Shown here: one piece after another, positions 4,723-30,365 of the stretch
Layout: the number at the start of each line of letters is the position of its first letter
How positions within the stretch are numbered: the first letter of the stretch is position 1
Assembly: GCA_045587165.1 (NCBI GenBank)
Contig: JAZNBT010000066.1
Coordinates: forward strand, 1 to 45,197
Direction: 5' to 3'
Length of the DNA: 45,197 nucleotides
From: Alphaproteobacteria bacterium
GTDB lineage: Bacteria; Pseudomonadota; Alphaproteobacteria; CAAGCB01; CAG-977
The notes under the pieces: generated by a model
Seen by the model: only the letters and a program-made list of their open reading frames with translations
What the model was told of the DNA's origin: nothing
The model's database searches: none
Program-made: the position numbers and the translations under genes

Positions 4723-5685
4723 TTATCTTGTTTTAGCCTTCGCCATCAAAATCGCGGTATCAAATTGCGGTTGATGAAATTTATCCGGCTGATTTTCATA
4801 ATGCTTTTTCGCGCTCGGCGCACGAGCGAGCAAAGCGGTTATTTTTTCTGCGGATTCTTTATTTACCGCGACATAATGTCCGCTTTCCAAAATCTTCGGA
4901 TCTTCGGAAAAATAACAACTGCCGTCATTGTTCAAACACAGATCTTTAACAATATGCGCCGCGGATTGAGAAACGGCATACGTATCCGTTTTATGATCGC
5001 CCCGGTCTTCACGGCGCTGCATCATTTCCACCTGATACGCTTCATCATAAGCTTTCTTTACGGGTTCATTATCATACCATGCCAAAAAAGCCGCCGTACG
5101 CGCATGACCGTTGTTCAATGCGCCGTCTTCATATAAAGCATATTCGAAAGCCCGTCCGATTGCGCGATTGTCCGGTTGACGGCAAAAAGCGAACAAAGGT
5201 TGTTCGTTTCCTTTTTCCATCATCTCCCCTAACACTTGAGCCGCCGTTGCCTGAGCATCAGCCTCAACCGCGCGAGTACGCATAACGTTCGTTTTGATCG
5301 TTTCTTTACGAGGACGCTTATCATCGCTTGCATCATATTCGCCGCGTTCGAACTGACCGGCATGACGACATTCATGTATCAAAACGCCGACTAAAACATC
5401 GTCTTTGCTGACGGGATTCAAAACAATATTTTTGTTTTCCTTATTACATCCGCCGTTACACCCGAAAGCAAACTCCATTCCCAACTTATAACCGGCCTTG
5501 CTGGCGATTTCCAAAGTTTGCCGGCCCGTTTCGGATTCAACGATTTGATTAATCATTGACGTAATCCGTTCTTGTATCACCTTATCCCCGACGATTTCAA
5601 ACGGCGGCTGCAAATTTTGTTTTAAAGAAGCCCCTTCTGCCTGAACAGGAACGGATTGTTCAAAATCCTGTTGCAATACGGACAT
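4723..5685 (-). CDS. Putative zinc metallopeptidase (HExxH...E; possibly DUF6782-like)
   Basis: HECRH at 5362-5376 with downstream RAVEA. No signal peptide. The start overlaps the pqiC stop (TAATG). Homologous to 16340..17458. Confidence 0.7.
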   Translation of the reverse strand: MSVLQQDFEQSVPVQAEGASLKQNLQPPFEIVGDKVIQERITSMINQIVESETGRQTLEIASKAGYKLGMEFAFGCNGGCNKENKNIVLNPVSKDDVLVGVLIHECRHAGQFERGEYDASDDKRPRKETIKTNVMRTRAVEADAQATAAQVLGEMMEKGNEQPLFAFCRQPDNRAIGRAFEYALYEDGALNNGHARTAAFLAWYDNEPVKKAYDEAYQVEMMQRREDRGDHKTDTYAVSQSAAHIVKDLCLNNDGSCYFSEDPKILESGHYVAVNKESAEKITALLARAPSAKKHYENQPDKFHQPQFDTAILMAKAKTR

Positions 5686-6287
5686 TATTTTTTGCCTTTC
5701 TTTAAATTAGTGGATACATAATCGGCGATCGTATAGCCCAAATCTTTCAGCAAACGCTGTTCCGCGCGAACGACATCGGAATAATCGTCCCCTTCAACAG
5801 GAGCGATCAAAGTCGAACGAGACCGATAAACAACATTACCCGAATTTGACAGAATTGTCCACCATACATCCAACACGGCTTCTTTATCAAAAGTCGCGTC
5901 AAATCTTAAAACTTCGACGAACAGACGATACGGAAACAAATCCCTGTTCAGATTTATTTGTTTGGCCGCCTGATATCCCATACGCTCAGAAATGGATCCC
6001 GCCAAAACACGCGGAAAGACATCACCGATCTGTTCGGCCCAACGATTAAATTCGGAAGCGGTCAATGTCACGGAGTCCGGCTGACGAATAACGATTTGCG
6101 GTTTATCCAAATAATTCGGCATAAAAACGTTTTCGATTCCGATCAGCAAATTATCCGCATTTTTCAACGTTACGCTTTGCGACGGCAAAATATTACTGTC
6201 CAAAACATAAAAAGTGGAAGGACGAGAAAAGCCGCACGCGCTTAAAGCGGCCGTTAACGCAAAAATCAGATAAAAACGTTTTTTCAT
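5685..6287 (-). CDS. PqiC-family / ABC transport auxiliary lipoprotein
   Basis: Lipobox ALSAC and motifs FYVL, PNYLDKPQIV and NRWAE. Start moved to the ATG at 6287 (ATGA overlap with mlaD, GGAGG RBS). Confidence 0.88.
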   Translation of the reverse strand: MKKRFYLIFALTAALSACGFSRPSTFYVLDSNILPSQSVTLKNADNLLIGIENVFMPNYLDKPQIVIRQPDSVTLTASEFNRWAEQIGDVFPRVLAGSISERMGYQAAKQINLNRDLFPYRLFVEVLRFDATFDKEAVLDVWWTILSNSGNVVYRSRSTLIAPVEGDDYSDVVRAEQRLLKDLGYTIADYVSTNLKKGKK

Positions 6288-7111
6288 CGGGATCCTCCTT
6301 TTCCTCTCAACAACGCTTCGGGGTGACGTTCCAAATAATCCGACCAATTACGCAAAGACTGAGCCGCCGCACTGAAATCACGCAACATTTTATTTAAATC
6401 CAACATTGTTCTGGAATCTTCATCAAAAGATCCCAATGTTTTCTCAACTTTCTGCGATACAGCGGCCAGAGAATGCGTCAAAACCGAAATATCTTTCATA
6501 ACCGAAGGCGTATCATTGTTAATCAGTTTTAGTAATTTATCGGCTTCCAACAACAACGTGTTCATATTTTCCATAGTTTCCCGCAGCGGTAGTTTTTGCA
6601 ATGTCTGTATTAATTCTTCGCTGGTTGACGGCAAAGTGGGAACTTCGATAATTTTCGGATTATGACCCTGTAAAACGACCGGCGTATCGGGATAGAAACT
6701 GATTCCCACCATCATCTGTCCGGTTAAAATACTCTGCATTTCCAATTTTGCGCGTAATCCTTTGGCGATAAGATTATCCGTTATTTCGCGCAAATCTTCT
6801 TTCCGACGGCTTTTAACATCCAAAACGATGAAATTATTCTGATTGATTTCGACATATACGGGAATTTGCAATTCCGTCGTTTGCAGATCCGTCACCAAAG
6901 AAATTCCGATAACTCTGCCGATTTGCACCCCGTTAAACATAACGGGCGAACCGACATTCAATCCTTTGATCGATCCTTGGAAATACATCACGTATTTTAT
7001 GGAACGGGAAAAAAATCTGTCTTGATTAATTAACAGAAACGTTGCGATAAAAACAAAAAACGCCGTCAGAATAAAAACGCCTATCAATCTCGGATTTGCT
7101 TTTTGAACCAT
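6284..7111 (-). CDS. mlaD: MlaD/MCE-family substrate-binding protein
   Basis: N-terminal TM, SIKGLNVGSPVMFNGVQIGRV, GLRAKL..SILTGQ, and a helical tail ending LERHPEALLRGK. Confidence 0.92.
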   Translation of the reverse strand: MVQKANPRLIGVFILTAFFVFIATFLLINQDRFFSRSIKYVMYFQGSIKGLNVGSPVMFNGVQIGRVIGISLVTDLQTTELQIPVYVEINQNNFIVLDVKSRRKEDLREITDNLIAKGLRAKLEMQSILTGQMMVGISFYPDTPVVLQGHNPKIIEVPTLPSTSEELIQTLQKLPLRETMENMNTLLLEADKLLKLINNDTPSVMKDISVLTHSLAAVSQKVEKTLGSFDEDSRTMLDLNKMLRDFSAAAQSLRNWSDYLERHPEALLRGKGGSR

Positions 7112-7122
7112 TATTCTTTTCC

Positions 7123-7878
7123 TTATTTTTGACCGCGGGTTAAAAAATGTTCCACCGTTGCGTTCGGCGGATTTTTCAATAATTCCGTCGGATTGCCGTA
7201 AGCGATCACCGTTTTTGTGTTCACGTCCAGATAAATCGAATTTGTGGCAACGGCGAAAATGGACGGTAATTCATGCGTAACCATGACAATCGTCGTATGC
7301 AGATTTTCTTTGATTTGCAAAATCAAATCGTCCAGATTTTTGGAACTGATCGGATCCAGACCGGCGGACGGTTCGTCAAAAAAGACGATTTGCGGATCCA
7401 AAGCCAACGCTCTGGCCAATCCGGCGCGTTTTTTCATACCGCCGCTGATTTCGGCGGGATAATAATCTTGAAAACCGCCCAACCCCACCAAATCAAGTTT
7501 AAGCGCTACGATATCTTTAATTTCGGCTGACGTTAAATTCGTATATTGTTCCAACGGCAACGCAACGTTTTCAGCCAATGTCATTGATGACCACAACGCG
7601 CCGCTTTGGTATAAAATACCGGCCTGACGCATACAGGCATCTCTATCGGCTTTGCTTGCGCCATTTCCCCAAAAAGAGCGACCGTTAAAAATTTCCGTTC
7701 CCTTTGCCGGCATTTTCAACCCTGTTAAAACGCTCAGCAACGTACTTTTCCCGCAGCCGCTGCCCCCCATGATAACGAAAACATCTTCTCTGTTCACGGT
7801 GAAGGAAACGTCACGCATAATAACGTTTTCGCCGTAAGCCACCGTAAAATCCTTTATTTCCAAAAACGGTCCGACCAT
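7123..7878 (-). CDS. mlaF: MlaF/Mkl-type ABC ATPase
   Basis: GGSGCGKS Walker A, ISGGMKKRAGLARALALDP, FFDEPSAGLDP and VTH. The likely start is the ATG at 7878, just after the mlaE stop. Confidence 0.93.
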   Translation of the reverse strand: MVGPFLEIKDFTVAYGENVIMRDVSFTVNREDVFVIMGGSGCGKSTLLSVLTGLKMPAKGTEIFNGRSFWGNGASKADRDACMRQAGILYQSGALWSSMTLAENVALPLEQYTNLTSAEIKDIVALKLDLVGLGGFQDYYPAEISGGMKKRAGLARALALDPQIVFFDEPSAGLDPISSKNLDDLILQIKENLHTTIVMVTHELPSIFAVATNSIYLDVNTKTVIAYGNPTELLKNPPNATVEHFLTRGQK

Positions 7879-7880
7879 AA

Positions 7881-9008
7881 TCACACCCCGAACATGCTTA
7901 GAATAAAAGTTAAAACGGCCGTCGCCACCGTCATCCACACGATCGAACTGACAACCGCGGACGTTGTCGCCCGTCCGACGGCGGAAGCGTTGCGTCCGCA
8001 ATTAATTCCCTGATAGCATCCGCACAAAGAAATAATGACCCCGTAAACAGACCCGTGAAGGATCCCTATCAAGATATTTTTCATGCTCAAAGCTTTTAAG
8101 GTCATACGAAAATAATCTTCCGGCGACAAATCCAACATGAACACGCCGACGAAAGCACCGCCCATAATGCCCATTACATCGGCATAAACGGTCAGCAACG
8201 GCATCATCAAAGACAAAGCCAATACGCGTGGCAAAACCAAAAAATCGAACGGAGAAATTCCCATCGTTTTCAACGCGTCAATTTCCTCGTTTACCTGCAT
8301 GGAGCCGAGCGTTGCCGCATAGGATGCCCCCGTCCTGCCGGCCATAATCACACCGCCCATAATCGCGCCCATGACACGCGTAACGGCAATGGCAACCAGA
8401 CTTGAAACATAAATCTGCGCCCCGAACATTTTTAACTGAATCGATCCGACAAACGCCAAAATCAAACCGACGAGAAAACAAATCAAAGAAACGATCGCAA
8501 ACGCGTTAACACCGGCTTCCTGAATTTCGGCCAAAATATCCGTTTTACGCACAACGGCCCGTTTCATTAAAAAACGAACAAGAGAAGCGTACGTCTGACG
8601 GGTAAACAAATAGGCCGTTTTAAGGGATTCCCAAATTCGCAAAGCCATATTGCCCAAAAAAATCAAAAAAGATTCTCTTTGAACCATCTGCCTCGTCCGC
8701 ACATGTTCAGGAACGGAAAAAGCCAAATCCAATAAAGATTCCACGCCTTCCGGAAAATTCGAAAACGTATAAGTTACTTTATTTTTTTTGCATAAAGAAA
8801 GAATATCCACCAAAAATGCTGCCAATTGACTGTCCCAATCGGCAATATCCCCACCATTTAAAACAACGCTTGTAAATTCGGGGGAAACAAAAGCATTTAT
8901 GATTTCCGTCCTGTTGTCGACAGACGCGTCAAGCAACCATTCTCCCGACAAAACAAGTTCCGCGGAACGATTTTGTTCGTCCCTTTTCAATACGACCGCG
9001 GCAGACAT
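7881..9008 (-). CDS. mlaE: MlaE permease with N-terminal STAS-like domain
   Basis: AGRTGASYAATLGSMQVNEEIDAL, LVLPRVLAL and VGRATTSAVV, with STAS-like LSGEW..WDS at the N-terminus. GAGG RBS before the ATG at 9008. Confidence 0.93.
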   Translation of the reverse strand: MSAAVVLKRDEQNRSAELVLSGEWLLDASVDNRTEIINAFVSPEFTSVVLNGGDIADWDSQLAAFLVDILSLCKKNKVTYTFSNFPEGVESLLDLAFSVPEHVRTRQMVQRESFLIFLGNMALRIWESLKTAYLFTRQTYASLVRFLMKRAVVRKTDILAEIQEAGVNAFAIVSLICFLVGLILAFVGSIQLKMFGAQIYVSSLVAIAVTRVMGAIMGGVIMAGRTGASYAATLGSMQVNEEIDALKTMGISPFDFLVLPRVLALSLMMPLLTVYADVMGIMGGAFVGVFMLDLSPEDYFRMTLKALSMKNILIGILHGSVYGVIISLCGCYQGINCGRNASAVGRATTSAVVSSIVWMTVATAVLTFILSMFGV

Positions 9009-9028
9009 AAAAATCCTCGTTTTTTTTA

Positions 9029-9949
9029 TCAATTCACCTGTTGATCCGCCAGCGTCAAAAAATCCAACGGAGTTAATTCGTACTGTAAGATCAGATGCTT
9101 GATTATATCAGGATATTTAAACGGCTTATAGGGGAAATTTATTAATAAATGAGCTATGGAATACCCTCTCATTTGGTTATTGGAACGACGGTATTTCGCG
9201 CGCGCAATTCTGTAATTTTCAAAATACCCGTTTGTATTCAGATAATGGATCTGACTGATTACCGCGTCATACAAAGAATCGAAAACTTTGATCCGATATT
9301 GAGGACCTTCCTTTTGTTTTTCATCGGGAACGATGCCTTTTCCGTCCCAATCCCGCTGATTGAATACGGCATTGTATTCACGCGCATACCGACTGGTTCC
9401 GAAACCGGAATCCTGAGCGGACATTGTCAAAAGCAATGTCGGCGTAACGGCGTCGACACGCGGGATCAAGGTATTAAACAACGTATCCAAATCATCGGAC
9501 AATTTTACGTCATACCGTTTAATCCATTCCCTCAGTTCGTCCATGGATTGTTTTGACAAATCGCCGGTATCGTCGAATTCCCGCTTCAAACGCATAACCC
9601 GTTCACGTTCGGCCAACAGGGCTTCGTTTGCTTTTAAAATAACGGGCAACATCATTTCAAAAAATAATGCAGGCCGCTCTTCGTCGTATTTTTCCAGATT
9701 AAAGTCCTTGGGAACGGAACGAACGAACAACCTCGGTACGGGCTGTTTTTCTTTTAGTTGATGGATCATATCATAGTTGTATTCCCGAAAAACCCGTTGC
9801 AGCTGCGCCGTTTTAACCGGCGGAACAAAGTTGCCTTCCGCCGTTTTTTCGACAACAGGAATCTTTTCCCCGAAAAAATGTAACGCAACCGCCGCCATTC
9901 CGGCGATTAAGAAAAGCGCACAAATAAAATAAAGCCTTTTTTTATTCAT
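9029..9949 (-). CDS. Bax-like glucosaminidase (GH73)-fold protein, probably catalytically degenerate
   Basis: N-terminal anchor, 'LFFEMMLPVILKANEALLAER', 'RVDAV', 'AQDSGFGTSRYA' (family motif is usually AxESGWGTSRFA) and 'YLNT...Y..YR..R'. Confidence 0.8.
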   Translation of the reverse strand: MNKKRLYFICALFLIAGMAAVALHFFGEKIPVVEKTAEGNFVPPVKTAQLQRVFREYNYDMIHQLKEKQPVPRLFVRSVPKDFNLEKYDEERPALFFEMMLPVILKANEALLAERERVMRLKREFDDTGDLSKQSMDELREWIKRYDVKLSDDLDTLFNTLIPRVDAVTPTLLLTMSAQDSGFGTSRYAREYNAVFNQRDWDGKGIVPDEKQKEGPQYRIKVFDSLYDAVISQIHYLNTNGYFENYRIARAKYRRSNNQMRGYSIAHLLINFPYKPFKYPDIIKHLILQYELTPLDFLTLADQQVN

Positions 9950-10985
9950 ATTTTTCCTGCCCGACAATCCGTGCCATATCCGTTAAATTCATTGCCGACT
10001 GAGCCAGATAAAACCCCATCCCCAACAAATGATTGGGAACGAACTGCGTTTCCGCCGCACCGTTTAAAATGATCATCGGTTCCAGAAGTATTGCTTTTTT
10101 CAACGAAAACAGAGCTTTTTCCCATTTGTTTTTCAAAACTTCCTCCGAAAACAGATCTTTAAAATCCTTTTTCAAATTGCGCAGCGTTAAAAAATAAACA
10201 TACGCCTGCCCTTTGATCTCATAAAAAACGTCGTCGGCTTCGGTATCCCAAATTTTTCTTTCACCTTTTACGACCCGATCGTCTATTTTGCCGATACACT
10301 TTTTTATGTTTTCCGCCAACGCATCAAACATCCTTTTCAAAGCGTCCGGCGATGTATTAAATGTTTGATTCTTTTTTTGCACTTCGGCCTCATATTCCAA
10401 AATCAAATACTTGGCCGCTCTGTATTTTTTGACCGAAGAAATCGCCGGTTTCCATCCGTCGACATGCCACACGGCCACCGGATAATTCAATCGTTCCGAA
10501 GCTTCTTTCAACTGTTGCGCCTGAGGATTCAACGCGGCGAAAGTCTCTGTTATTTCCTGCGAGCCTTTTATAATACCCGTCTGAAAAGCGGGCATGTTAT
10601 CCAGAATCGCCGCGGGGAAAAAAAACGGCAAATTCGGCGTAAAAGCATGCTTATCCGTTTCCCGTTCGATCAATTCCGCCAAAGTATTCAGCGAACGGAT
10701 CCGGTCTTCCTGCACTTTTTCGCCCAAACGGGGATTCACATCAATCCGGTGATACAACAGCGCCCCTGCCGGATAATATAACACGATAAAAGCAAAGATA
10801 CCGCCCAGAGCCCAATGCCACCATTTTACAACAAAAGAAACGATTTTTTCCTTTACCGGCGGTGTAAAATCAGCTCCGGATTTCAGAAATATTTTAATCT
10901 TTTCCCACAAAACGGCGAAAACAGCCGCCGTATTTTTAAAAAAACTTTTTGCGGCCTGCACGGTTTTATTCCATTTTTCCTTCAT
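9942..10985 (-). CDS. DUF2333-family membrane-anchored protein
   Basis: TM helix followed by LDNMPAFQTGII, ADDVFYEIKGQAY and PNHL..MGFYL, typical of DUF2333. Confidence 0.8.
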   Translation of the reverse strand: MKEKWNKTVQAAKSFFKNTAAVFAVLWEKIKIFLKSGADFTPPVKEKIVSFVVKWWHWALGGIFAFIVLYYPAGALLYHRIDVNPRLGEKVQEDRIRSLNTLAELIERETDKHAFTPNLPFFFPAAILDNMPAFQTGIIKGSQEITETFAALNPQAQQLKEASERLNYPVAVWHVDGWKPAISSVKKYRAAKYLILEYEAEVQKKNQTFNTSPDALKRMFDALAENIKKCIGKIDDRVVKGERKIWDTEADDVFYEIKGQAYVYFLTLRNLKKDFKDLFSEEVLKNKWEKALFSLKKAILLEPMIILNGAAETQFVPNHLLGMGFYLAQSAMNLTDMARIVGQEKYE

Positions 10986-11096
10986 TTTTCAGCCTTGTTC
11001 AGCAATCTGTATCTCTTTATTATCATACGCGATAGCCGATAAAATGCCACTTAATTTATATAAGAGAAAAATTTTTACAAAAAAAGTATTTCACTC

Positions 11097-11125
11097 CTTG
11101 CGAAAAGAAAACATGTTCCTTATAT
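11097..11125 (+). promoter_or_regulatory. RpoH (sigma32)-type promoter of dnaK
   Basis: CTTG-N17/18-(C)CTTATAT matches the alphaproteobacterial RpoH consensus CTTG-N17-CYTATNT. Confidence 0.7.
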
Positions 11126-11181
11126 AAAGCTGCGATAGTTACCGAACTCGGTTAAATTTAAAAGGAAAAGAGGTTTTTTTT

Positions 11182-16339: not shown

Positions 16340-17458
16340 ATGTCTTTTTTCTCGGATCTGTTCAAAAAAAAGCCTAAAGAACCACCACCGCCCAGAACAC
16401 GGGAAGAAATGGAAAGTTCTTTGGAAATACGCGAAAAAGTGAATCATCCCATCAAAACTTCCAACGGTATTCTGCAGCATTCCTACCAAAGAAGAAGACT
16501 TCCGGAAGAAGAAGAACAAAAGCTGTTAAAGGAAACTTTCGATTTGATCGCTTCCGTTCCCGCGGGGAAAAAACTGTTGGATGAAGTGGCTCAGGGCGGT
16601 TATGATATTTACTTTGAAACCTTTTGCGGCTCTAATTTAGGCTGTATGTACAGCGGCAATAAAAAAATCATGCTGTCGCCGCCGTCTCATGGCAGTGCTG
16701 CGGAATTAGCCGCAACGGCGTTTCATGAAATGACGCACGCCCTTCAACAGGAACGTACCGGCTATCTTGGCAATAAAAGTTCCGATTTGACACTTGCGGA
16801 TCAATTCAAATTCCACCGCGCGGCCGAAGCCGCCGCTTGGACGGAAGAAGCAAATTTCGCATATCAAATCAAAGACAAACATCCCGAAGTCGAACATATG
16901 GTCAACAGATTTCCGATGTATCGGGCTTTTGCCGCTGAAATGGAACAATCCGGCGATAAGGGAAAAGCAGGCGAAGCCGCTTTTAAAGCATGGTACGGCT
17001 TTAAACATTATCAGGATTCCTATGAAGACAATCACGTCCGGAATTTTTCTTATTTTATGGATCAAAGTTATGCCAACAGGAAAAAAGCACTTTTCGATAC
17101 GATTCCTTCGGAATCTGTTTTAGAAAAAGTCTTCATTTCAGATGAACTTCGGCAAAACATTTCTCCTGATTTTTTAACGTCAAAAGAGGCTTTTTCCGTT
17201 TCAGATTATGCGATAAACAAACTGAACGAAAAATCGGCTTTATACTTTAAGGGATTTAAAGATCCTTCCTTGGGCGATATGTTTTCTTATGAAACAGGGG
17301 AAAGACGCGCACCGCAGCAACAGCAATCAAATGAAGTTGTTGCCGCATCATTGCATCCTCATAAGTCGATGATGTCTGCTTTAAAACAAATAAATCAGGC
17401 GGAAAAAACGAAACAGCTTATCGCAGCAAAAACAAAAAACAGAGCGGCACGACATTAA
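16340..17458 (+). CDS. Putative zinc metallopeptidase (HExxH...E), paralog of 4723..5685
   Basis: HEMTH at 16724-16738, RAAEA and AAFKAWY. No signal peptide. GGAG RBS. Confidence 0.72.
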   Translation: MSFFSDLFKKKPKEPPPPRTREEMESSLEIREKVNHPIKTSNGILQHSYQRRRLPEEEEQKLLKETFDLIASVPAGKKLLDEVAQGGYDIYFETFCGSNLGCMYSGNKKIMLSPPSHGSAAELAATAFHEMTHALQQERTGYLGNKSSDLTLADQFKFHRAAEAAAWTEEANFAYQIKDKHPEVEHMVNRFPMYRAFAAEMEQSGDKGKAGEAAFKAWYGFKHYQDSYEDNHVRNFSYFMDQSYANRKKALFDTIPSESVLEKVFISDELRQNISPDFLTSKEAFSVSDYAINKLNEKSALYFKGFKDPSLGDMFSYETGERRAPQQQQSNEVVAASLHPHKSMMSALKQINQAEKTKQLIAAKTKNRAARH

Positions 17459-18965: not shown

Positions 18966-21080
18966 ATGAATTTGAAACGTTTTTTCTTTATTTTACCGAT
19001 ATTATGTTTGTTTCAGATGCCTTCTGCCGCTTTCGGCAAGACGGACACGACGATCGTCATCGACGAAACGGAGGCGACGCCCGTATATGATTCGGCGGCA
19101 AGCGAACTTGCGCAAAATTTATTTACCTTTGACCCGAAACTGGCTCCGATCAAGCTGGAATTCGTGGATTTCAAAATCAATCGCAACAGGACGGCCGACG
19201 AATGGGGAAAGGATATCGGACGATATAATTTCAAATTATTCGGCTGTAAAAGAGCGGAAAAAAACGTCGTTTTAAATGAAGGACGCGCCATGCGCCGCGA
19301 CATGAAATTCGACAATGTCTTTTTCGAAGAAATGAACGAATTGTTCCCTGTCATCGTGCGCAAAGATAATCCTTATTTCCCGTATTCCATCAGTGCCGAA
19401 CGGCCGGATTTACTGCCAGGATATGTTATCACGGCAGAAATCAAAGATCTGTTTATCAATGTTTGCGACCAATATGACTGGCGGACGCGTACTTATTCCC
19501 ATTTGCGCAGCGGATCCGCTGAAATTCAGGTTTTATGGCGCGTTATGACGCCGTTCAACCGCAAACTGTACTGGGAAGACGTCACCCGCGGCTATGCCGA
19601 AATTCAAACACCGGTCCGCGACGGCGAAGTCCGCTTGATCGAAAAAGCGTTCGGCGACGCTTTGGTACGCGTTATAGGTATGCCGGGTTTTTTACAAACC
19701 ATGCGCAAAATTCCCGATCCGAACGAATTGGAAAAGGCTAAAGCCGATTTCGAAGCGTTGGCGTACGAACACAAAAAATATAAAAAGCTGAAATCCTCTT
19801 ATCGGCGAAAACGTATGATCTTTTACAACGAGCGCGAACGTGAAAGAACGCTGAATGATCTGGAAAAAATCATGGGCGGCGATCGGAATTTGGCCGAAGG
19901 ACTTGAAAAGGGTCTCGGAGCGCTTCATACAATGGAAGAATTGGAACGATTGCTTGCCGAAGGAAAGACACTCACTCCCGAACAATTGGAACAATTAGAA
20001 CAAGCGCGTCGCGAATTGGCCCGGCAAACCGAAAAAAGTTTGAAAACAGGTGAAAACCGCGGTTTAAGCGATTCTATGGAATCCGGCGCCATGGACGAAC
20101 GCGGTTTGGGCGATTCCATGGGATCCGGAATTCTGGCTCGCGGTCTGGGTGATTCCATGGAATCAGGTTCTATGGACGGACGCGGTCTGGGTGATTCCAT
20201 GGGATCCGGAATTCTGGCTCGCGGTTTGAAAGACAAAGATGACGGACAAGGATTTTACGCCCGTTTGTTGAAAGAACCTCCCTTGGAAAGAGGGTTGTTC
20301 GGACGTATGTTGCCGGTTATTCCTTTAGCTCGTTTTTTGGAAGGATATGACCTCTCCTCCGCTTTGGAAAGAGAAGACAACAAACTGGGATTTGTCGTAT
20401 CCCCCGTTGACGGCTGGATAACGATTGATAATCAAAAACCTTTCCGTTACCTTTCGCCGATCCGTTTATACCGTATCCGGTCCAGCGTTGTTGCCGTAAC
20501 GAATGAAGAAGAAGTCGGATCCGGTCTTGTTATTTCGCCGTCGTTGATTTTGACGAATTACGAAATCGCTAAAAAAACGACCTTCGTTAAGACGGAATTT
20601 TTAGACGGACGCGTTGCGCGTTCCATGGTATTGCGTGTCAACAAAGACAAAGATGTCGCATTGTTATATATGTCGCCGTCCGAATTCGACCGATATAACT
20701 GGCCTATTCCCCTGCGGCTCGATTTACCCGACGTCGGCGAACCGTTCTATGCCATCGGAACCCCCATGCGCGGCGGTTTTGAAGGCGCCATGGAAAAAGG
20801 CAAAGTCGCCGGATACCGTTTCAGCGATACAGGTGTTGACATATTAACCAATACAAATGTTCAAAGCGTTTCTTTGGGCGGTATTTTGGTGGATGAAAAC
20901 GGCAACGCGATCGGGTTAGCTCACGCAGGTAAAAGCCTGATCGAAAGCCGCGACGGATTTATTCCGATAGGCGATGCTTTTGATACTTTAAAAGTCCGTA
21001 TTCGCGATCGCGATATGGATGAAACGCCGACTCAAAAAGCCCGTCGGTTACGCAAAATGCGTGAAAATTACATTAAATAG
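18966..21080 (+). CDS. Secreted multidomain protein with a C-terminal trypsin-like (S1C/Trypsin_2) domain, catalytic residues degenerate
   Basis: Signal peptide. GSGLVISP..ILTNYEI, KDVALL, VGE..YAIGTP and VQSVSLGGILVDENGNAIG follow the HtrA-type fold but lack the catalytic His and Ser. Confidence 0.75.
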   Translation: MNLKRFFFILPILCLFQMPSAAFGKTDTTIVIDETEATPVYDSAASELAQNLFTFDPKLAPIKLEFVDFKINRNRTADEWGKDIGRYNFKLFGCKRAEKNVVLNEGRAMRRDMKFDNVFFEEMNELFPVIVRKDNPYFPYSISAERPDLLPGYVITAEIKDLFINVCDQYDWRTRTYSHLRSGSAEIQVLWRVMTPFNRKLYWEDVTRGYAEIQTPVRDGEVRLIEKAFGDALVRVIGMPGFLQTMRKIPDPNELEKAKADFEALAYEHKKYKKLKSSYRRKRMIFYNERERERTLNDLEKIMGGDRNLAEGLEKGLGALHTMEELERLLAEGKTLTPEQLEQLEQARRELARQTEKSLKTGENRGLSDSMESGAMDERGLGDSMGSGILARGLGDSMESGSMDGRGLGDSMGSGILARGLKDKDDGQGFYARLLKEPPLERGLFGRMLPVIPLARFLEGYDLSSALEREDNKLGFVVSPVDGWITIDNQKPFRYLSPIRLYRIRSSVVAVTNEEEVGSGLVISPSLILTNYEIAKKTTFVKTEFLDGRVARSMVLRVNKDKDVALLYMSPSEFDRYNWPIPLRLDLPDVGEPFYAIGTPMRGGFEGAMEKGKVAGYRFSDTGVDILTNTNVQSVSLGGILVDENGNAIGLAHAGKSLIESRDGFIPIGDAFDTLKVRIRDRDMDETPTQKARRLRKMRENYIK
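20058..20228 (+). repeat. Intragenic tandem repeat (42+39 bp subunits; 81-bp unit x2)
   Basis: RGLSDSMESGAMDE / RGLGDSMGSGILA / RGLGDSMESGSMDG / RGLGDSMGSGILA / RGL. Confidence 0.9.
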
Positions 21081-21821: not shown

Positions 21822-22757
21822 ATGAACATGTTAAATACGGAATTTACTGTTGATATGGCTGTTTGGCAGGACGGCGTAACTTTTCAATCCGCATTGGCAT
21901 CCAAACCGGCAGGAACATTTGAACTGCCGCGTACGATACGCAAAAACCCGTTTTCGCAAACATTGAACGATAAAACGGAAACAACACCCGTCGCCCATAC
22001 GGCGCAAGAGCCGGTTAGCGTTAAACCGACGGTCGAAAGTCGGATTCAGACACCCGTCCTTTTAACCGCACAGGAACAAAGCATACAAAATCCGGTAAAT
22101 CTTTCCGCAAAGATACCGGAAATCCCCGCCTCCTTAAAAGATGTCGAAGACTTAACCCCCTTTATCGTCAGCGCAAACACGACCAAACCGGGCAGCCGTT
22201 TAAACGAACAACTGGAAAGAACGACCTTTTCCCAAAAACCGAAATCCTTAGTCGGCAAGGAATCTCCTTATAATCTGTCCGACGAAAAAGTTAAGGCCCG
22301 AGAAACGGCCAAAACGGCGCGCACGCTGAAAGGCCCCGGCAACGCCAAAGTTTTTTCGATGGATACGGTAACGCGATACAACAACAATCAAACGAAATTC
22401 GGTGTCGCCCAACCGTTGACGGTCAGCGCTTCGGATCAGGCGAAACAACTGCGTATTGAACAAATGAAACAACAGGCCAAAGCCAAAACAATTAATGAAA
22501 CAAATACGTCTTTGGCGCAAAAATCAACGACTTCCAAACCGCCCGTAGATATCGAAGCCATTCGTTCCCAAGTCAGTACGGAAGGCTTCGGCTATAAACG
22601 CGACAACCTGCCGATCGGATCATCGGAAAAGACATCCGCCGCCGCCGCATGGTTTCCCGAAGCGATGACCCGCCAGCTTGACGCCTACGAAGCGGCACGA
22701 AAAGTCGCTCAACACGGTGTTACGTCCGAAACGGCAAAAACGAATTTAAACGTATAA
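21822..22757 (+). CDS. Hypothetical protein (T/K/Q/P-rich, conserved-looking C-terminal WFPEAM..QLDAYE helix)
   Basis: Long ORF with a strong RBS, its own promoter and its own terminator. Confidence 0.75.
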   Translation: MNMLNTEFTVDMAVWQDGVTFQSALASKPAGTFELPRTIRKNPFSQTLNDKTETTPVAHTAQEPVSVKPTVESRIQTPVLLTAQEQSIQNPVNLSAKIPEIPASLKDVEDLTPFIVSANTTKPGSRLNEQLERTTFSQKPKSLVGKESPYNLSDEKVKARETAKTARTLKGPGNAKVFSMDTVTRYNNNQTKFGVAQPLTVSASDQAKQLRIEQMKQQAKAKTINETNTSLAQKSTTSKPPVDIEAIRSQVSTEGFGYKRDNLPIGSSEKTSAAAAWFPEAMTRQLDAYEAARKVAQHGVTSETAKTNLNV

Positions 22758-22776
22758 TCTTTTAAATGTTTTCGGT

Positions 22777-22817: not shown

Positions 22818-22826
22818 CGTCATAAA

Positions 22827-23048: not shown

Positions 23049-23197
23049 ATTGAATCTCCTCAAAACTAGTTTTGTATGACGTAAAAAAATAATAAACGCT
23101 TTTCAAGGATTTTCAACATTTAATCTTCAATAAAAAAGTTTTTTCAGTAGAATGTGCTGTGAAATCTTTGACGATAAAAAAACGGATGACGAAAAAA

Positions 23198-23830: not shown

Positions 23831-24187
23831 TCGATTCAGCGCGCGGCGGTCGCGTTTGGTCGGACGACCTGAACCGGCTTCGCGATATTCAAACGCTTTT
23901 TTCGGCTGAGGGGCGATATTTTCCGTTTCTTTCGTCTGCTCGTAAAGTGTTCGGGCAATCGGCGCGCCGACTCTTTTTTCAACAAAGCCCGTCACGCGGA
24001 CAAAAAAGCGCATCGTGCCGCGCAAAATTTCCAATTCGTCGCCGATTTTGATATCGCGACTGCATTTCAGGACTTTTTCATCGTTGACGGCGACATGACC
24101 CCCGACGATCATCTCCTGAGCCGTCGCGCGGGTTTTTGCAAAACGCGTAAAATAAAGCCACTTGTCGATTCGCTGAGAATCGATCAT
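23813..24187 (-). CDS. hslR: S4-domain RNA-binding protein (Hsp15/HslR)
   Basis: RIDKWLYFTRFAKTR, A..LYE and GRPTKRDRR. Confidence 0.92.
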   Translation of the reverse strand: MIDSQRIDKWLYFTRFAKTRATAQEMIVGGHVAVNDEKVLKCSRDIKIGDELEILRGTMRFFVRVTGFVEKRVGAPIARTLYEQTKETENIAPQPKKAFEYREAGSGRPTKRDRRALNRLKGKF

Positions 24188-26712
24188 TTCTTTTTCAACG
24201 CCGCCAAGGCCGCAAACGGCGAAGTCATATCGATCGGCTCGGCTTTCGGTTCGGCTTTGCGTTTTTTGAATTTCGGCTGGATCATCAGAATTTCAGTTTC
24301 CTTTGTTTCTTCACCGACCGTTGTCGTTTGTTTTTCCTTTGTGACTTTAAAACCCAAAAATCCGAATACTTCTTCGGCTTCGTCACGTTTTAATCCGGCA
24401 ATCGACAGTAATTCCAACGGCAAAACCTGCGGTTTTCCTTTGTCCTGACGGGTAATTTCACGCAACTTTGCGGTAAAGCGTTCCATTACGTCCACACGGA
24501 TTGCCCGCGTGCCGGCCAAAACATATCCCTGAACCAGATAAAGCGCCCGCGGTACGCCGCGTTCGACGGCGAACGACATTTTTCCGTCAACGGCGAAACC
24601 CGTCGCGTATTGCGTTTTATCGAACCAGACTTTCCATAAAACAGCGCAAACGCGCTGTGCCGTCGGCTTCAACAACATCGGGAAAAACAAATAATCGTGA
24701 CCCAAGCGCATACCGCATTTTGCCAGAACTTTTTTATCCGTTTCGTTCAGACCTTTGATTAAATCGAATACTTTTTCACGCGGCATCGTGCCTAATTGTT
24801 CGGCAACCTGCCATAAAATCCCGCGCGCCGATCCCGAAGCGTTTTCTTCGTCCAACGTGCGCAAGGCCGTAAACAACGGCGCGATCTTGTTTGCCAGATA
24901 AACTTCAAGCCAAACGTTCAAACGTGCCTTCACCTGTTCCAAAGCGGCCTGATCAATCGTTTCATAAGCGCTGACGGTAACGGTCGGATGTAACATATCG
25001 CGTCCTTTAACGATTTTTCCGATCGACTGTCCGCGCCATAAAACCGTTGCGTCGTTTTCCAATGTAAAGGCATCATCCGCCGCCGCCGCGATCGCGGCCG
25101 TCCGGTTTTGAAATTCCGCCTGCAAAGCCTTTTCCGCCGCAGAAATCAATACACGATCGGCAAACTTTCCGGATCCCGTAATCGGGGCGAAACGCAGCCC
25201 TTCCATTTTTCCGACAGACTGTCCTTCGACTTCGACCGATCCGTCCTCTTCAATTTTTGTAAACAATTCTACCTGTGTTTTCATACCTTTTACCAAAACA
25301 GATGTGCGCTTATCCACAAACCGTTGAGCCAGTTTCTGATGCAACGCATCCGACAATCTGTCTTCAACGGTTCTTGTCATGTCCCGCCAGTACGCCGACC
25401 GACCGATCCACTCTTTTCTTTGAGCAATATACGTCCAAATTCTGATTCCTGCAATACGTCCCGTAATAACATCGATATCTCCGTTCGTATTATCCAACAT
25501 TTTAACTTGTTTTTCGAACCAGTCTTGCGGCAATTCCCCTTTATCCAACATCAACCGATAAAGTTGGAGCAACAATCGTGCGTGAGCTTCGGGCGTTACC
25601 TTGCGAAAATCTGGAATTTGGCAAATATCCCACAACAACCTGACGCGTGAAGGGTGATTTGTCAGCCTGACGATACCCGCGTCTCGAGCTAAAATTTCCA
25701 ACACCTGCTGATCTTCCGCTTTGCGCGCGCCGGTCAAGCCGGACAAAGACGGCCGGACATTCAAGCTGTAAATCAGAGAATCCAAAGACGCCGTTTTTAA
25801 ATCCGGATTACGCCAAAACAAATAAGACAAAACTTCGAACCTGTGTTCTTCGATCCGGTCGATGACGTCCTGCGTCAAAGCGGACGCTTCGGCCGCCGCA
25901 CCGAACGTTCCGTCTTTCATGTAGCGACCGGCTCTGCCCGCGATCTGCGCCAGCTCCGCAGCGGATAAAGCTCGCATTTTTTGTCCGTCGAATTTACGCA
26001 AAGACGTAAAGCAGACATGATTTATATCCATATTCAGTCCCATACCGATGGCATCGGTTGCGACCAAATAATCAACTTCGCCCGATTGAAACATATCAAC
26101 CTGCGCGTTTCGCGTGCGGGGACTTAAAGCCCCCATAACAACCGCCGCGCCGCCCTTTTGCCTGCGAATTAATTCCGCCAAAGCATACACATCCTGCACC
26201 GAAAAACCGATAATCGCCGAACGCGGCGGCAAACGGGTAATCTTTTTTATTCCCGTATAGCTCAACTTTGAAAATCTGGGACGCGTTTCTATTTCGATTT
26301 CAGGTATCAGCTGTTTTAACAACGGCTTGACGGTTTCAGCCCCCAAAAACATCGTTTCCCGTTTTCCGCGGGCATATAAAAGCCGTTCGGTAAAGATATG
26401 GCCGCGTTCCGGATCGGCCGCCATTTGAATTTCATCCACGGCCAAAAAATCGACCGGCTGCTCCAAAGGCATGGCTTCGACCGTACAGATAAAATAAGAC
26501 GGCTTTTCCGGCATGATTTTTTCTTCGCCGGTAATCAAAGCAACAGCTTCCGCCCCTTTTGCGCGGACGATCTTGTCATAATTTTCGCGTGCCAACAATC
26601 GCAAAGGAAAACCGATCATACCGGTTTTATGCGTCAACATTTTTTCCACGGCCAAAAAAGTCTTGCCCGTATTTGTCGGGCCCAGTAAAGCGGTGATTGT
26701 TCCGTCCGTCAT
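24184..26712 (-). CDS. Suv3-like SF2 helicase (alphaproteobacterial MgpS-type)
   Basis: LGPTNTGKT, PLRLLARE, VDEIQ, VATDAIGMGLN, QIAGRAGR and a C-terminal SPFAALAAL. ATGA overlap with hslR. Confidence 0.93.
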   Translation of the reverse strand: MTDGTITALLGPTNTGKTFLAVEKMLTHKTGMIGFPLRLLARENYDKIVRAKGAEAVALITGEEKIMPEKPSYFICTVEAMPLEQPVDFLAVDEIQMAADPERGHIFTERLLYARGKRETMFLGAETVKPLLKQLIPEIEIETRPRFSKLSYTGIKKITRLPPRSAIIGFSVQDVYALAELIRRQKGGAAVVMGALSPRTRNAQVDMFQSGEVDYLVATDAIGMGLNMDINHVCFTSLRKFDGQKMRALSAAELAQIAGRAGRYMKDGTFGAAAEASALTQDVIDRIEEHRFEVLSYLFWRNPDLKTASLDSLIYSLNVRPSLSGLTGARKAEDQQVLEILARDAGIVRLTNHPSRVRLLWDICQIPDFRKVTPEAHARLLLQLYRLMLDKGELPQDWFEKQVKMLDNTNGDIDVITGRIAGIRIWTYIAQRKEWIGRSAYWRDMTRTVEDRLSDALHQKLAQRFVDKRTSVLVKGMKTQVELFTKIEEDGSVEVEGQSVGKMEGLRFAPITGSGKFADRVLISAAEKALQAEFQNRTAAIAAAADDAFTLENDATVLWRGQSIGKIVKGRDMLHPTVTVSAYETIDQAALEQVKARLNVWLEVYLANKIAPLFTALRTLDEENASGSARGILWQVAEQLGTMPREKVFDLIKGLNETDKKVLAKCGMRLGHDYLFFPMLLKPTAQRVCAVLWKVWFDKTQYATGFAVDGKMSFAVERGVPRALYLVQGYVLAGTRAIRVDVMERFTAKLREITRQDKGKPQVLPLELLSIAGLKRDEAEEVFGFLGFKVTKEKQTTTVGEETKETEILMIQPKFKKRKAEPKAEPIDMTSPFAALAALKKK

Positions 26713-26791
26713 CGAAAAAACTTTCAAAAAGGGGTTGAAATTCGGGCTTACATTACTTAATTAAAACTCGTTTGTTAATCTGGAGGTTATA

Positions 26792-28651
26792 ATGTCGGAA
26801 GAAAAAATGCAATTTCAAGCCGAAGTCGGCAAAATTTTAGACATCGTCGTCAATGCGCTTTATTCGGACACGGACATCTTTTTAAGGGAACTGGTATCCA
26901 ACGCGTCGGACGCCTGTGACAAACTGCGTTATGCCGCGATTATGAAACCGGACATCGCCAAAGGCGACGGCGAATTTAAAATCGACATCACCCCTGACAA
27001 AGACGCGCATACGTTAACGATCGCCGACAACGGCATCGGTATGAACAAACAGGACTTAATCAAAGACTTAGGATCGATCGGCCGTTCCGGTTCCGCCGAA
27101 TTTTTAAACAATTTAACAGGCGACAAACAAAAAGACGCTTCGATTATCGGTCAGTTCGGCGTCGGTTTTTATTCGGCGTTCATGGTCGCCGAAAAAGTTG
27201 AGGTCCGTTCCCGCAAAGCCGGCGAAGATCAAGGTTGGTTATGGACGTCTTCCGGCAAGGGATCTTTCACCGTTACCGAAGAAAACGATGTTTCCCGCGG
27301 TACGAAAATCACGCTGTATCTGAAGCAAGACGCCCATCAGTACGCCGAAGCCGCGGAAGTTCGCCGTATCGTACGCCAATTTTCCGATCACATATCCTTC
27401 CCCGTCATCATGCACTACATGGGCGAAACGGAAACAATCAATATGGCCAGCGCTTTGTGGACGCGCAATAAAACGGACATTACCGATGCGCAATACAAGG
27501 ATTTTTATCGTCACATTTCGCACGCTTTTGACGATCCGTGGGATATTTTGCACTACAAAGCCGAAGGAACGATTGAATATACCGCATTGATGTTCATTCC
27601 GACCAAAACGCCTTTTGATATTTTCCAACCGAACCGCAACGCGCAGATCAAGCTTTACATCAACCGTGTATTCATCACCGATCAGGTGCCCGATATGTTG
27701 CCGAACTATCTGCGCTTTGTCCAAGGCGTTATCGATACCAAGGAATTGCCTTTAAACGTTTCGCGCGAAATGCTGCAAAAAACGCCGATACTGGCTAAAA
27801 TCAAAACCGGTGTCGTCCGCCGCATTTTAAATGAACTGAAGAAACGCTCTGAAAATGAAAAAGAATATCTGACATTCTGGAACGCTTTCGGCGCCGTTTT
27901 GAAAGAAGGCATTTTCGAAGACACCTACAATCGCGAAGAAATAGCCGAACTGTGCCGTTTTTATTCCACGAACGGCGACGAATTGACTTCTTTGGCCGAT
28001 TATATTTCCCGTATGAAAGACGGACAAAAGAGCATTTATTACATTACCGGCGACAACTTGGGCGTTTTACGCAACAATCCGCAATTGGAAGGCTTTGCCG
28101 CCCGCGGTATCGAAGTCTTATTGCTGACGGATCCGATTGACGAATTCTGGCCGCAGGGACTGACTCAATTCAAAGAGAAACCTATCAAAGCCGTTAACGC
28201 TGGCGCTCAGGAATTGGAAACACTTTTGATCACCGATCAGTCGGACAAGATTGAAAAAGCATCAGAATCCGATTTGGAAGCTTTAAAGAAATTCATGAAA
28301 GAAATCGTAGGCGACGACGTTAAAGAAGTCCGTACAACCGAACGTCTGACAAAAAGCCCCGTCGCCCTGTCGACCGGCGACGGCGAAGCGTCCATCCATT
28401 TGGAACGTCTGATGCGCCAACACAACCAACCGTCTTTATACGTTTCAAATCGATATTTCGACATCAACCCGCGCCACCCGCTGATTAAAAAGTTAGCCGC
28501 CAAGGTCGCGGCGGGCGACACGGGCGATACGAACAAAGCCCTTATTCAGGTTTTATTCGACCAGGCCAAAATTATCGAAGGCGAACCGATTAACGATCCG
28601 GCGGCTTTTTCACAACGCGTAACGGATTTTATGATGGCTGCCGTAAATTAA
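26792..28651 (+). CDS. htpG: Chaperone HtpG (Hsp90)
   Basis: FQAEV, FLRELVSNASDA, DNGIGM, IGQFGVGFYSAF and LPLNVSRE. Confidence 0.98.
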   Translation: MSEEKMQFQAEVGKILDIVVNALYSDTDIFLRELVSNASDACDKLRYAAIMKPDIAKGDGEFKIDITPDKDAHTLTIADNGIGMNKQDLIKDLGSIGRSGSAEFLNNLTGDKQKDASIIGQFGVGFYSAFMVAEKVEVRSRKAGEDQGWLWTSSGKGSFTVTEENDVSRGTKITLYLKQDAHQYAEAAEVRRIVRQFSDHISFPVIMHYMGETETINMASALWTRNKTDITDAQYKDFYRHISHAFDDPWDILHYKAEGTIEYTALMFIPTKTPFDIFQPNRNAQIKLYINRVFITDQVPDMLPNYLRFVQGVIDTKELPLNVSREMLQKTPILAKIKTGVVRRILNELKKRSENEKEYLTFWNAFGAVLKEGIFEDTYNREEIAELCRFYSTNGDELTSLADYISRMKDGQKSIYYITGDNLGVLRNNPQLEGFAARGIEVLLLTDPIDEFWPQGLTQFKEKPIKAVNAGAQELETLLITDQSDKIEKASESDLEALKKFMKEIVGDDVKEVRTTERLTKSPVALSTGDGEASIHLERLMRQHNQPSLYVSNRYFDINPRHPLIKKLAAKVAAGDTGDTNKALIQVLFDQAKIIEGEPINDPAAFSQRVTDFMMAAVN

Positions 28652-28680
28652 AAAAAAAGCCCCTTTCGGGGCTTTTTTAT
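28652..28680. terminator. Bidirectional terminator
   Basis: aaaaaaa-gcccc-tttc-ggggc-tttttt. Confidence 0.92.
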
Positions 28681-28691
28681 TAACCGTTTTT

Positions 28692-29402
28692 TTATAACAA
28701 ATTCAACAGCTTATCAAAAGCGGCCTCTACACCTTCGACGTCCGTTTTATTCAAAGCCAGTTCCGTTGTCTGTTCCATCATAAACAACGTTACCAAAGCT
28801 TTTTCCATTTCGAACAATACCTGATTCAAATAAATATCCTGCGTAATTTCATCGGCATAAATACACAGACGCATATAAGCTTTTAATTTTGCCGTTTCGA
28901 CGATTGTTTCTTTAAAAACATCGGATTGCTGTTCCTGCTGTTGCGCGGGTTGATCGCCGTCCGTAAAAACAACCGCATCAATTACTCTCAGAACCTGTTC
29001 AAATTGAGGATAAACCAATGTATCGTTTTTCTTTTCAAACGGATCTATCGCATCAAAATCTTCCAAAGCTCCTATATTTTCCTCGATTTTTTCCGCGGAA
29101 AGCGAGGCTAAACCGTCCAAACCGACGGTCTTGTCAAATTCTTTTAATAACGGAGAAATTTTGGCTTCCGACTTTTTTGCCAAAAGATTCAATTCCACAT
29201 TATTCGTTTTAGAAAACGTTTTAATAAAACCGAAAAACAAGGGAGATTCATCTTCCGAAACGGGCAATTCTCCATTTAAATATGCGGTCAAACGAATAAA
29301 AGCCTCGTTTTGAACGGCGTTGATTTGTTGTGTATCGTTTTGTTCCTGAGCCGCCGCGAATTCAGAAATCAGTTCCTGTTCCGTTTTCTGTGAAAAATCC
29401 AT
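28692..29402 (-). CDS. Hypothetical acidic helical protein
   Basis: About 236 aa. GGAGGG RBS before the ATG at 29402. No recognisable motif. Confidence 0.7.
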   Translation of the reverse strand: MDFSQKTEQELISEFAAAQEQNDTQQINAVQNEAFIRLTAYLNGELPVSEDESPLFFGFIKTFSKTNNVELNLLAKKSEAKISPLLKEFDKTVGLDGLASLSAEKIEENIGALEDFDAIDPFEKKNDTLVYPQFEQVLRVIDAVVFTDGDQPAQQQEQQSDVFKETIVETAKLKAYMRLCIYADEITQDIYLNQVLFEMEKALVTLFMMEQTTELALNKTDVEGVEAAFDKLLNLL

Positions 29403-29474
29403 ACTTACCCTCCGCATAAAAAACGCTTACAGTATAGGGAATCATCTGTTGAAAACAAATAAAAAAAAGAAGGC

Positions 29475-30365
29475 TCAACGGCCTTCTTTGTTTCTTTTAA
29501 GCGCTAACGACGTAATCGCGTTTTTCGAACTTTCGGCGCCTTTGTTCAAGAAATCACGCACCTGACCGGCACATTCCTGTCCTTTATTAATGACATTTTT
29601 AATCTTATCGCCGGTTTTATCGTCCTTTTGAGCTCTTTTCCTTTTTTCTTCTTCAGATTCTTTTGTCCCTTTCGGTTTTCCGGAACCGTGCGTCATAGGA
29701 ACGCTGGAAACAAAGTACGTCCCGAATGTAATGGCCAAAACCGCGGCATCACGTTTAACTTCCGTAAAAGATTCTTCCCCGCGCAGCCATTTACCCGTTG
29801 TTTTAATCAGCTGTTTCAATTCGGGCAGAATCAACCAAGACGCTTTACCGACTCGCACCGCCCCTTTAACGGCAGGAGCACCGGCCACATCACAGGCGGC
29901 CGAACAAATGCTGATGGCGCCGGAAGTCGTTGTAAAACGAGCTTCTTCCTTATTTTGTTTAAAGTAATCGAAAAGACTTTTTATTTCGCCCTTTTCTTTG
30001 GCGATTTGAGCCGGTTCAAGCAAAGACAAAGACTTTTCGCATGTCTTATAGGCGCACATACCGACGACACCCGGTAACCCGAACAATTTAGCCGCCAAAA
30101 CAGTACGAGTAATATTTTTTGCACTGTCACGGATTTTTGTATAAACCTGCCCGTGTTTGGCTTCCATTCTGGCGTCAAACTTTTTCCATCTTTTATCTAT
30201 GGCGTTCAAAACGGGAACGGCCTGCAACACTTTTTCCCGTCTTTGATGCATACGTTCCTTCATATTCATTACGCCGCGTGTCGTCGAAGACAAAAAATCT
30301 TCCCACGTACCCGTTCCGATTGATAAACTTTTCAGCTCGATACCACTGCCGACTAATTCAACCAT
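29475..30365 (-). CDS. Hypothetical basic protein with hydrophobic segments and a C-terminal ...SLALKRNKEGR
   Basis: 296-aa ORF with a GGTGGA RBS. No recognisable domain. Confidence 0.7.
   Translation of the reverse strand: MVELVGSGIELKSLSIGTGTWEDFLSSTTRGVMNMKERMHQRREKVLQAVPVLNAIDKRWKKFDARMEAKHGQVYTKIRDSAKNITRTVLAAKLFGLPGVVGMCAYKTCEKSLSLLEPAQIAKEKGEIKSLFDYFKQNKEEARFTTTSGAISICSAACDVAGAPAVKGAVRVGKASWLILPELKQLIKTTGKWLRGEESFTEVKRDAAVLAITFGTYFVSSVPMTHGSGKPKGTKESEEEKRKRAQKDDKTGDKIKNVINKGQECAGQVRDFLNKGAESSKNAITSLALKRNKEGR

Follow-up and report, generated by a model that had tools for sequence, protein, structure and literature searches.

A basic C-terminal tail on about 50 proteins of a gut alphaproteobacterium as a candidate type IV translocation signal

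About 50 proteins of an uncultured gut alphaproteobacterium (GenBank assembly GCA_045587165.1), for the most part degradative enzymes such as proteases and nucleases, end in the same short, Ala-rich and basic tail, which we consider to be probably a new, lineage-specific type IV translocation signal read by the coupling protein VirD4. Three of these proteins are encoded in a stretch of 45,197 nucleotides (hereafter the window), which is contig C66 of this 2.07 Mb, 98.75% complete genome. A sequence-only reading of the window had taken all three for orphans; two of them turn out to be paralogues in the Pfam family DUF6782 (PF20573), and only protein 29475 is without a family. The proteins and their tails are as follows.

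4723..5685, minus strand: protein 4723, 320 residues, DUF6782, zinc-metallopeptidase-like, with HECRH at residues 104-108 and the invariant Glu141
about 4723-4767, minus strand: tail of protein 4723, the last ~14 codons
16340..17458 (start at 16340 or 16409), plus strand: protein 16340, the second DUF6782 paralogue, with HEMTH
about 17414-17458, plus strand: tail of protein 16340, a variant ending in Arg-His
29475..30365, minus strand: protein 29475, 296 residues, no family; a conserved body of ~230 residues, a variable charged linker and the tail
about 29475-29519, minus strand: tail of protein 29475

The tail motif recurs across the genome

The gene set comprised 1727 proteins, called with our own hexamer caller, and their C-termini were scored with a position matrix trained solely on the 20 complete DUF6782 ends, with a threshold of 6 bits. 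Fifteen of the 1707 other proteins exceeded this threshold, against an expectation of 2.0, and a refined model, iterated and scored leave-one-out, recognized 32 carriers among the same 1707, where shuffling of the last 32 residues predicted 3.0 and internal pseudo-ends 0.9. A reverse model, trained on these 32 non-DUF6782 tails only, placed 13 of the 20 DUF6782 ends above 6, the best of the other 1675 proteins reaching 6.1. Across the genome, the tail is thus more frequent than chance provides.

Read towards the C-terminus, the motif runs from a K/Q/S/N-rich linker through a seven-residue Ala/Val/Leu core and about four basic or small residues to a position that is mostly Gly, Ser or Thr and a terminal Arg. 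Acidic residues are nearly absent, the spacer between core and terminal residues is four in ~90% of carriers, and a short helix is predicted at the tail (residues 310-317 in the AlphaFold model of protein 4723, at low confidence). Upstream of the tail the sequences vary in length and are unalignable between cargo families. Complete DUF6782 ends terminate in Arg in 15 of 20 cases, as against 162 of the 1727 proteins overall, and the mean net charge of the last 20 residues is +4.0 in carriers vs +0.3.

All four Gly codons and five Arg codons are in use in the tails, and only 7 of 51 carrier genes are coupled to a downstream gene, compared with 553 of the 1626 remaining genes. Because tail codons vary freely and few carriers are coupled downstream, the signal resides in the protein and is no DNA or ribosome-binding-site effect; ribosome-binding-site overlap or a DNA repeat as the origin of the GR end is ruled out on the same grounds. 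Judged by simple hydrophobicity rules only, a signal-like N-terminus occurs in 2 of 49 carriers (421 of 1607 others) and a membrane segment likewise in 2 (377 of 1607 others), which agrees with the earlier observation that the three proteins of the window have no Sec signal.

The three ends in the window, at 4723 (minus), 17458 (plus) and 29475 (minus), are as the sequence-only reading had quoted them, and the motif it saw in them exceeds chance, but the second is atypical. With models trained without DUF6782, protein 4723 scores 9.5 and protein 16340, in which a His follows the Arg, -0.5, which is at about the 99th percentile of the other 1675 proteins; protein 29475 scores 8.4 leave-one-out. 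Relatives are Arg-terminal in 51 of 56 cases for protein 4723, in 16 of 22 for protein 16340 (15 of the 22 with a tail score >6), and in 45 of 51 for protein 29475, whose relatives end in GR in 40 of 51 cases although their linkers differ in length by >100 residues. PqiC, which had been pointed to as an example of the Lys-rich ends common here, scores -13.0, and all window proteins outside the tailed ones stay at or below 2.0.

A scattered VirB/VirD4 machine

It had been noted that no secretion machinery is visible in the window; a machine is present elsewhere in the genome. A full VirB/VirD4 set is scattered over six chromosomal contigs (virB2 twice, virB4, virB6-like three times, virB8 twice, virB7-like, virB9, virB10, virB11 and virD4 twice), with the gene order virB8-virB7-virB8-virB9 at one locus; VirB3 and VirB5 were not identified in this set, and several vir matches lie below family cut-offs. 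A separate, compact and complete conjugative virB/virD4 cluster lies on contig C29. VirD4-2 was found in all 28 genomes of the order, VirD4-1 and the chromosomal VirB4 in 27 each, and every genome has 13-38 DUF6782 matches.

VirB10 is 2338 residues long (L266:142-7158, G000:C155), with ~1800 residues of short Gly/Asp/Val repeats between its membrane anchor and its TrbI domain, and its open frames measure 1975-2684 residues in 25 of the 28 genomes; so large a VirB10 would make the part of the machine that spans the envelope much longer. VirD4-2 (L010:468-2690, G000:C158) is a 37% identical paralogue with an altered Walker A/B context, encoded near the tailed PepN.

The source genome also has flagellar and type IVb pilus genes, and known substrates of these systems carry N-terminal signals. 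TssC of the type VI secretion system had no match in the genome, while a positive control matched; DotA and ATP/ADP translocase likewise had none, with no positive control matched, so that their absence is not shown. At L008:235-13558 (G000:C135), type IVb pilus secretin and TcpQ-like genes stand back to back with virB2-virB4, followed by five exported proteins without a family and ATP synthase genes.

Gene order and distribution link the tail to VirD4

The next gene at virD4 loci encodes an HNH-like protein in 73 of 80 cases overall (53 of 58 in the more distant group), and in 62 this protein is GR-terminal. An SMI1/KNR4-like gene (NCBIfam YrhA, above cut-off) is present at 74 of the 80 loci, and two paralogous membrane proteins are encoded upstream of virD4 in most of them; in the source genome the unit virD4 - HNH-like - SMI1/KNR4 lies at L009:455-4324 (G000:C103). 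In none of the 67 pattern-matched sequences does the virD4-linked copy retain the second His of its HH motif, a residue that is kept in six dispersed paralogues. Its own tail score in the source genome is low (-2.2), so its end is regarded as a variant of the tail, and tail scoring of open reading frames near virD4 at the 80 loci, in which one row was an artefact made up of X letters, was uninformative except for this gene. Possibly the HNH-like/SMI1 pair are adaptors of the coupling complex.

VirD4-1 has 36 acidic residues among its final 70, and its last 40 residues are the most acidic of all 1727 proteins. The net acidic charge of these 40 positions is 17-29 in six family members and 1-14 in 31 others; in two outside genomes with DUF6782 expansions it is 19 and 28.

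DUF6782 was present in 22 of 401 sampled alphaproteobacterial genomes. In three genomes that have this VirD4 and lie outside the order's 28, 12 of 19 DUF6782 proteins score at least 6 and 14 of 19 are Arg-terminal, as compared with 1 of 41 and 6 of 41 in 11 genomes without this VirD4, where many ends are Pro-rich; these counts are samples of each genome's family, kin among them are non-independent, and eight weak DUF6782 matches from small genomes (two of which scored at least 6) and open-ended reading frames were left out. The coupling-protein loci of three VirD4-less genomes have a different coupling protein with DotM/IcmP-like neighbours (145-205 bits, cut-off 230), and DotA/TraY in one. 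Other families' DUF6782 expansions were seen alongside DotA/DotM/DotL-like genes (L262:4961-13370; L264:8236-11819; L265:9866-14057). The DUF6782 proteins of such Dot-bearing families often have Pro/Arg-rich ends, and some have signal-like N-termini; these ends are possibly a second, type IVB address.

Gene order, paralogue pairs (below) and distribution, which tie the tail to virD4, lend support to the earlier suggestion that the tailed proteins are substrates of an undescribed effector system of the type IV secretion (T4SS) kind, translocation itself being what we infer.

The tail marks extra copies of enzymes

The source genome has 23 DUF6782 members, 20 of them with complete ends. Among the 32 carriers outside the family, 15 have a clear Pfam family, five belong to the HNH-like family and one corresponds to a fragment of a VirB6-like gene; protein 29475 and the other remaining carriers have no family. 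The carriers assigned by Pfam are listed here.

Peptidases: PepN, two PepF and one S41 peptidase
Nucleic-acid enzymes: two RNase J-like proteins and one RecD-like helicase
Other enzymes: zinc phospholipase C, a GlgX-like protein, two HAD hydrolases and adenosine deaminase
Remaining: a kinase-like protein, GNAT and an ELM1-like protein

No ankyrin, leucine-rich repeat or similar eukaryote-like domain occurs among the carriers' Pfam matches. Borderline scores (3-4.5) were obtained by a copy of alanine racemase (Alr), an M16 peptidase and a second helicase, together with evident false positives such as RsmE. The highest tail score of all belongs to a 324-residue protein (L009:6720-7694), which shares 40% identity with the C-terminal portion of the VirB6-like protein encoded next to it.

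What the tail marks is extra enzyme copies rather than orphans, as PepN illustrates. In a comparison across the order of 30 copies drawn from 65 matches, one of them the source genome's own training example, 17 have an extension of 45-78 residues ending in R (14) or RS (3), and 13 of these 17 score >2, whereas none of the 13 unextended copies is Arg-terminal. The housekeeping copies form an untailed clade in a FastTree tree; in two further clades, 8 of 9 and 9 of 10 members have the tail. Tailed and untailed paralogues also occur together for RNase J and GlgX, and for Alr at the borderline score.

The HNH assignment of the HNH-like family is weak: Pfam gives E 0.003-0.02 for 2 of 21 sequences, and the top rows of a Foldseek search with a model are HNH domains at E>=0.12. 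Six of the dispersed paralogues retain N-x-H-H-K.

The tailed proteins of the window and their neighbours

Proteins 4723 and 16340 match DUF6782 far above its cut-off of 27 bits (173.9 bits, E 4e-51, and 102.7 bits, E 3e-29, respectively), and are 28% identical to each other over 172 residues. H104, E105, H108 and E141 are invariant across 45 sequences, so that the family combines its Pfam match with the HExxH motif and the third Glu ligand of zincin metallopeptidases. A fold search with the AlphaFold model of protein 4723 gave zincin-like folds at Z<=7.2 only, and fold searches with two models found no close relative for either. DUF6782 proteins are zinc-metallopeptidase-like, predicted peptidases. 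The family has no assigned function, and its name was not found in the literature searched.

Protein 29475 has no match in Pfam, NCBIfam or PDB sequences and none above lead level in the Atlas, but two paralogues on contig C55. Directly downstream of it lies a further gene:

28692..29402, minus strand: acidic protein without a tail (score -17.2)

The sole paralogue of this acidic protein (32% identical) adjoins both C55 paralogues of protein 29475, which makes it a candidate chaperone or immunity partner. Elsewhere in the window, an exported trypsin-like protein with internal ~10-residue RGLGDSM repeats is encoded at 18966-21080, a 311-residue low-complexity orphan without a Pfam match or a tail (score -13.6) at 21822-22757, and the C-terminal end of a protein with repeated Glu/Pro-rich 16-residue units at 44739-45197, where the contig end overlaps C156.

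As to the habitat of the lineage, the VirD4 of the source genome is 79-95% identical to copies from Alphaproteobacteria of gut and rumen that have not been cultured, some of them recorded as CAG:977 and UBA2903; presumably these bacteria make up a family, CAG-977. Near-identical DNA is present in animal gut runs, bovine gut included. Near-identical contigs from three bovine-gut metatranscriptomes (one study) span both DUF6782 genes and the virD4 locus, though as contigs they show neither transcription nor its level.

Evidence against the signal and alternative explanations

Several observations weigh against a VirD4-read signal. The reverse test is only partly independent, as its 32 carriers were seeded by the DUF6782 model, and 5 of the 20 DUF6782 ends are not Arg-terminal. 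The enrichment in orphans over core proteins that the sequence-only reading had expected did not appear (with DUF6782 left out, 2 of 118 conserved proteins vs 30 of 1589 others, P = 1.0), since many of the carriers duplicate ordinary enzymes and are not orphans; both PepF copies, moreover, carry the tail, and the assembly has no PepF without it. One genome (G051) has good tails and a VirD4 without the acidic end, and the contrast between families with and without this VirD4 represents one or few evolutionary events, partly confounded by GC content (55-60% in three of the genomes). In 340 kb and 60 kb of sequence from two small-genome relatives with this VirD4, no protein scores >4 (0 of 241 and 0 of 39, compared with 0 of 154 and 1 of 150 in VirD4-less controls and 53 of 1503 in the training genome); hence either only some families have the wide repertoire or the signal has become different. 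Of the 52 tails, none fits the Agrobacterium consensus R-x7-R-x-R-x-R strictly and one does with Lys allowed. Finally, a basic C-terminus proved misleading for Ehrlichia Ank200, which is not translocated by a T4SS (PMC3417381).

In one of the small-genome relatives (G035), orphans at L228:5657-7099 and L225:8912-10585 end in ...ERS/QRS/QRA after Gln-rich linkers, possibly a diverged form of the signal.

The hydrolase-rich cargo and the cytoplasmic appearance of the carriers would also suit a degradation tag, one that limits the lifetime of harmful hydrolases within the producer's own cytoplasm, and Ala-rich unstructured ends are typical of Clp degrons. We think this unlikely: the ClpX tags known from alphaproteobacteria have Ala-Ala at their end and not Gly-Arg, and a degron leaves unexplained both the GR-ending gene behind virD4 (62 of 73 loci) and the disappearance of the tail from genomes without this VirD4. 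An address for some other exit route, a divergent type I exporter or a phage-derived particle, has about the same small chance of being correct. Signals for type I export are likewise C-terminal and independent of Sec, the case of Ank200 illustrates how type I and type IV secretion can be confused (PMC3417381), and the genome has five weak membrane-fusion-protein matches, but no HlyD match in it reaches the cut-off (best 51 vs 208.65 bits), no RTX-type family was found among the carriers scanned, and the gene-order link points to virD4.

That the tail is an amphipathic helix binding membranes or nucleic acids, and so localizing proteins in the producer or the target with no role in export, would fit the predicted helix and the positive charge of the last 20 residues (+4.0 vs +0.3); we rate it distinctly lower, since anchors need no free terminal Arg at a fixed spacing and the substrates of the cargo are very diverse. 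Service to the conjugative C29 system rather than the chromosomal one is less probable again: that cluster is complete, and relaxases use similar basic ends with VirB/VirD4 systems (PMC10025392), yet C29-type VirB4 occurs in 12 of the 28 genomes of the order, against 28 of 28 for the tailed DUF6782 expansion, and the tailed repertoires of the 16 genomes in which it was not found largely exclude this explanation. Chance, through Lys/Arg-rich ends (Lys is the commonest last residue, at 269 of 1727) or ribosome-binding-site overlap, is hardly credible and is refuted by the shuffles, the codon use and the conservation of GR under varying linkers.

Proposed mechanism and target

It is established that VirD4 reads C-terminal signals of positive or hydrophobic character (PMC10025392, PMC4546372, PMC6414681, PMC11098119), and a negatively charged surface of VirD4 has been suggested as the partner of such a signal (PMC11098119). 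If the tail is a signal of this kind, its basic helix would bind VirD4, perhaps aided by the very acidic VirD4 C-terminal domain, and enzymes would be recruited to the machine by gene duplication and the gain of a tailed extension of 45-78 residues. The virD4-linked HNH-like protein, with one motif His missing, and its SMI1/KNR4 partner may act as a standing substrate or adaptor. The cargo (peptidases, nucleases, helicase, phospholipase, glycogen-debranching enzyme and phosphatases) would then digest the contents of an attached cell.

The nature of that cell is the weakest step of this explanation. We lean somewhat towards bacterial prey, because of the immunity-type neighbours, the bacterial-type enzymes, the lack of eukaryote-like domains and the intact Arg/Lys/His biosynthesis genes in the window; a gut protist is the less favoured but still substantial candidate, and glycogen-rich gut protists are possible targets. 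In a bolder picture, which we regard as speculative and rather unlikely in its entirety, these bacteria, a widespread and uncultured family, would be contact predators or ectoparasites; they would deliver a digestive cocktail of 50-60 enzymes by way of a type IV machine not described before, equipped with a VirB10 of 2300 residues, a pair of coupling proteins and dead-HNH/SMI1 adaptors; a portable helix of ~15 residues ending in (G)R would weaponize duplicated housekeeping enzymes, and DUF6782 would swap its address between type IVA and type IVB.

Comparison with known type IV systems

There is a close likeness to the signals of the Agrobacterium VirB/VirD4 system (VirF, VirE2/3, VirD5 and the C-terminal 48 residues of MobA), which are likewise short, positively charged, at the extreme C-terminus, Sec-independent and read by VirD4 (PMC10025392, PMC3417381), a reading that is presumed here. 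The tail differs from them in its Ala-rich core and fixed terminal (G)R.

The Rickettsiales rvh T4SS shares with the present machine dispersed chromosomal genes, two virB8 and several virB6 (PMC9553169, PMC4546372, PMC6414681), and the basic tails of its effectors RalF, RARP-2, Ats-1 and APH0215 bind the coupling protein (same sources), as those described here would do. It differs in that here there is one chromosomal virB4 and one virB9, the second VirB4 and VirB9 belonging to the mobile C29 cluster, and two virD4 and a VirB10 of 2338 residues; the cargo here consists of bacterial-type hydrolases, with no eukaryote-like domain among the Pfam matches. For the ancestor of rvh, a role in killing bacteria or warding off protists has been suggested (PMC9352585).

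With the bacteria-killing T4SS of Xanthomonas and Stenotrophomonas the system has in common hydrolytic cargo, nuclease-like genes beside SMI1/KNR4 genes and a C-terminus bound by VirD4 (PMC10025392), such binding being a prediction for the tail. The recognized element there is the XVIPCD domain of ~120 residues, as against a tail of ~15 here, and Pfam scans gave no XVIPCD match; the effectors there come with immunity genes, whereas most cargo genes here have no adjacent immunity candidate. Bartonella Bep proteins (BID plus a basic tail) and ByeA offer a parallel in the basic tail, the C-terminal helix and the recruitment of foreign enzyme families to VirB/D4 (PMC11098119), which may have happened here too, but the carriers scanned have no BID match. 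A conserved C-terminal domain of 100-120 residues, of the XVIPCD or BID kind, is not a feature of the carriers.

C-terminal type IV signals as such are already known; the tail motif, the repertoire, the giant VirB10 and the virD4-HNH-SMI1 unit are without earlier description in the literature searched, which took in few subscription journals. DUF6782 itself emerges here as a set of expanded families in which the C-terminus shifts along with the type of secretion system, and pairs of paralogues with and without the tail allow effector recruitment to be observed directly. Type IV effector signals are rarely sharp enough in consensus for a whole repertoire to be read from sequence (PMC10025392). 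Here the consensus is that sharp, so that for a common, biologically undescribed gut lineage ~50 candidate effectors can be listed together with a testable pair of coupling protein and peptide, and tail and machine provide the first concrete hypothesis on the lifestyle of these bacteria.

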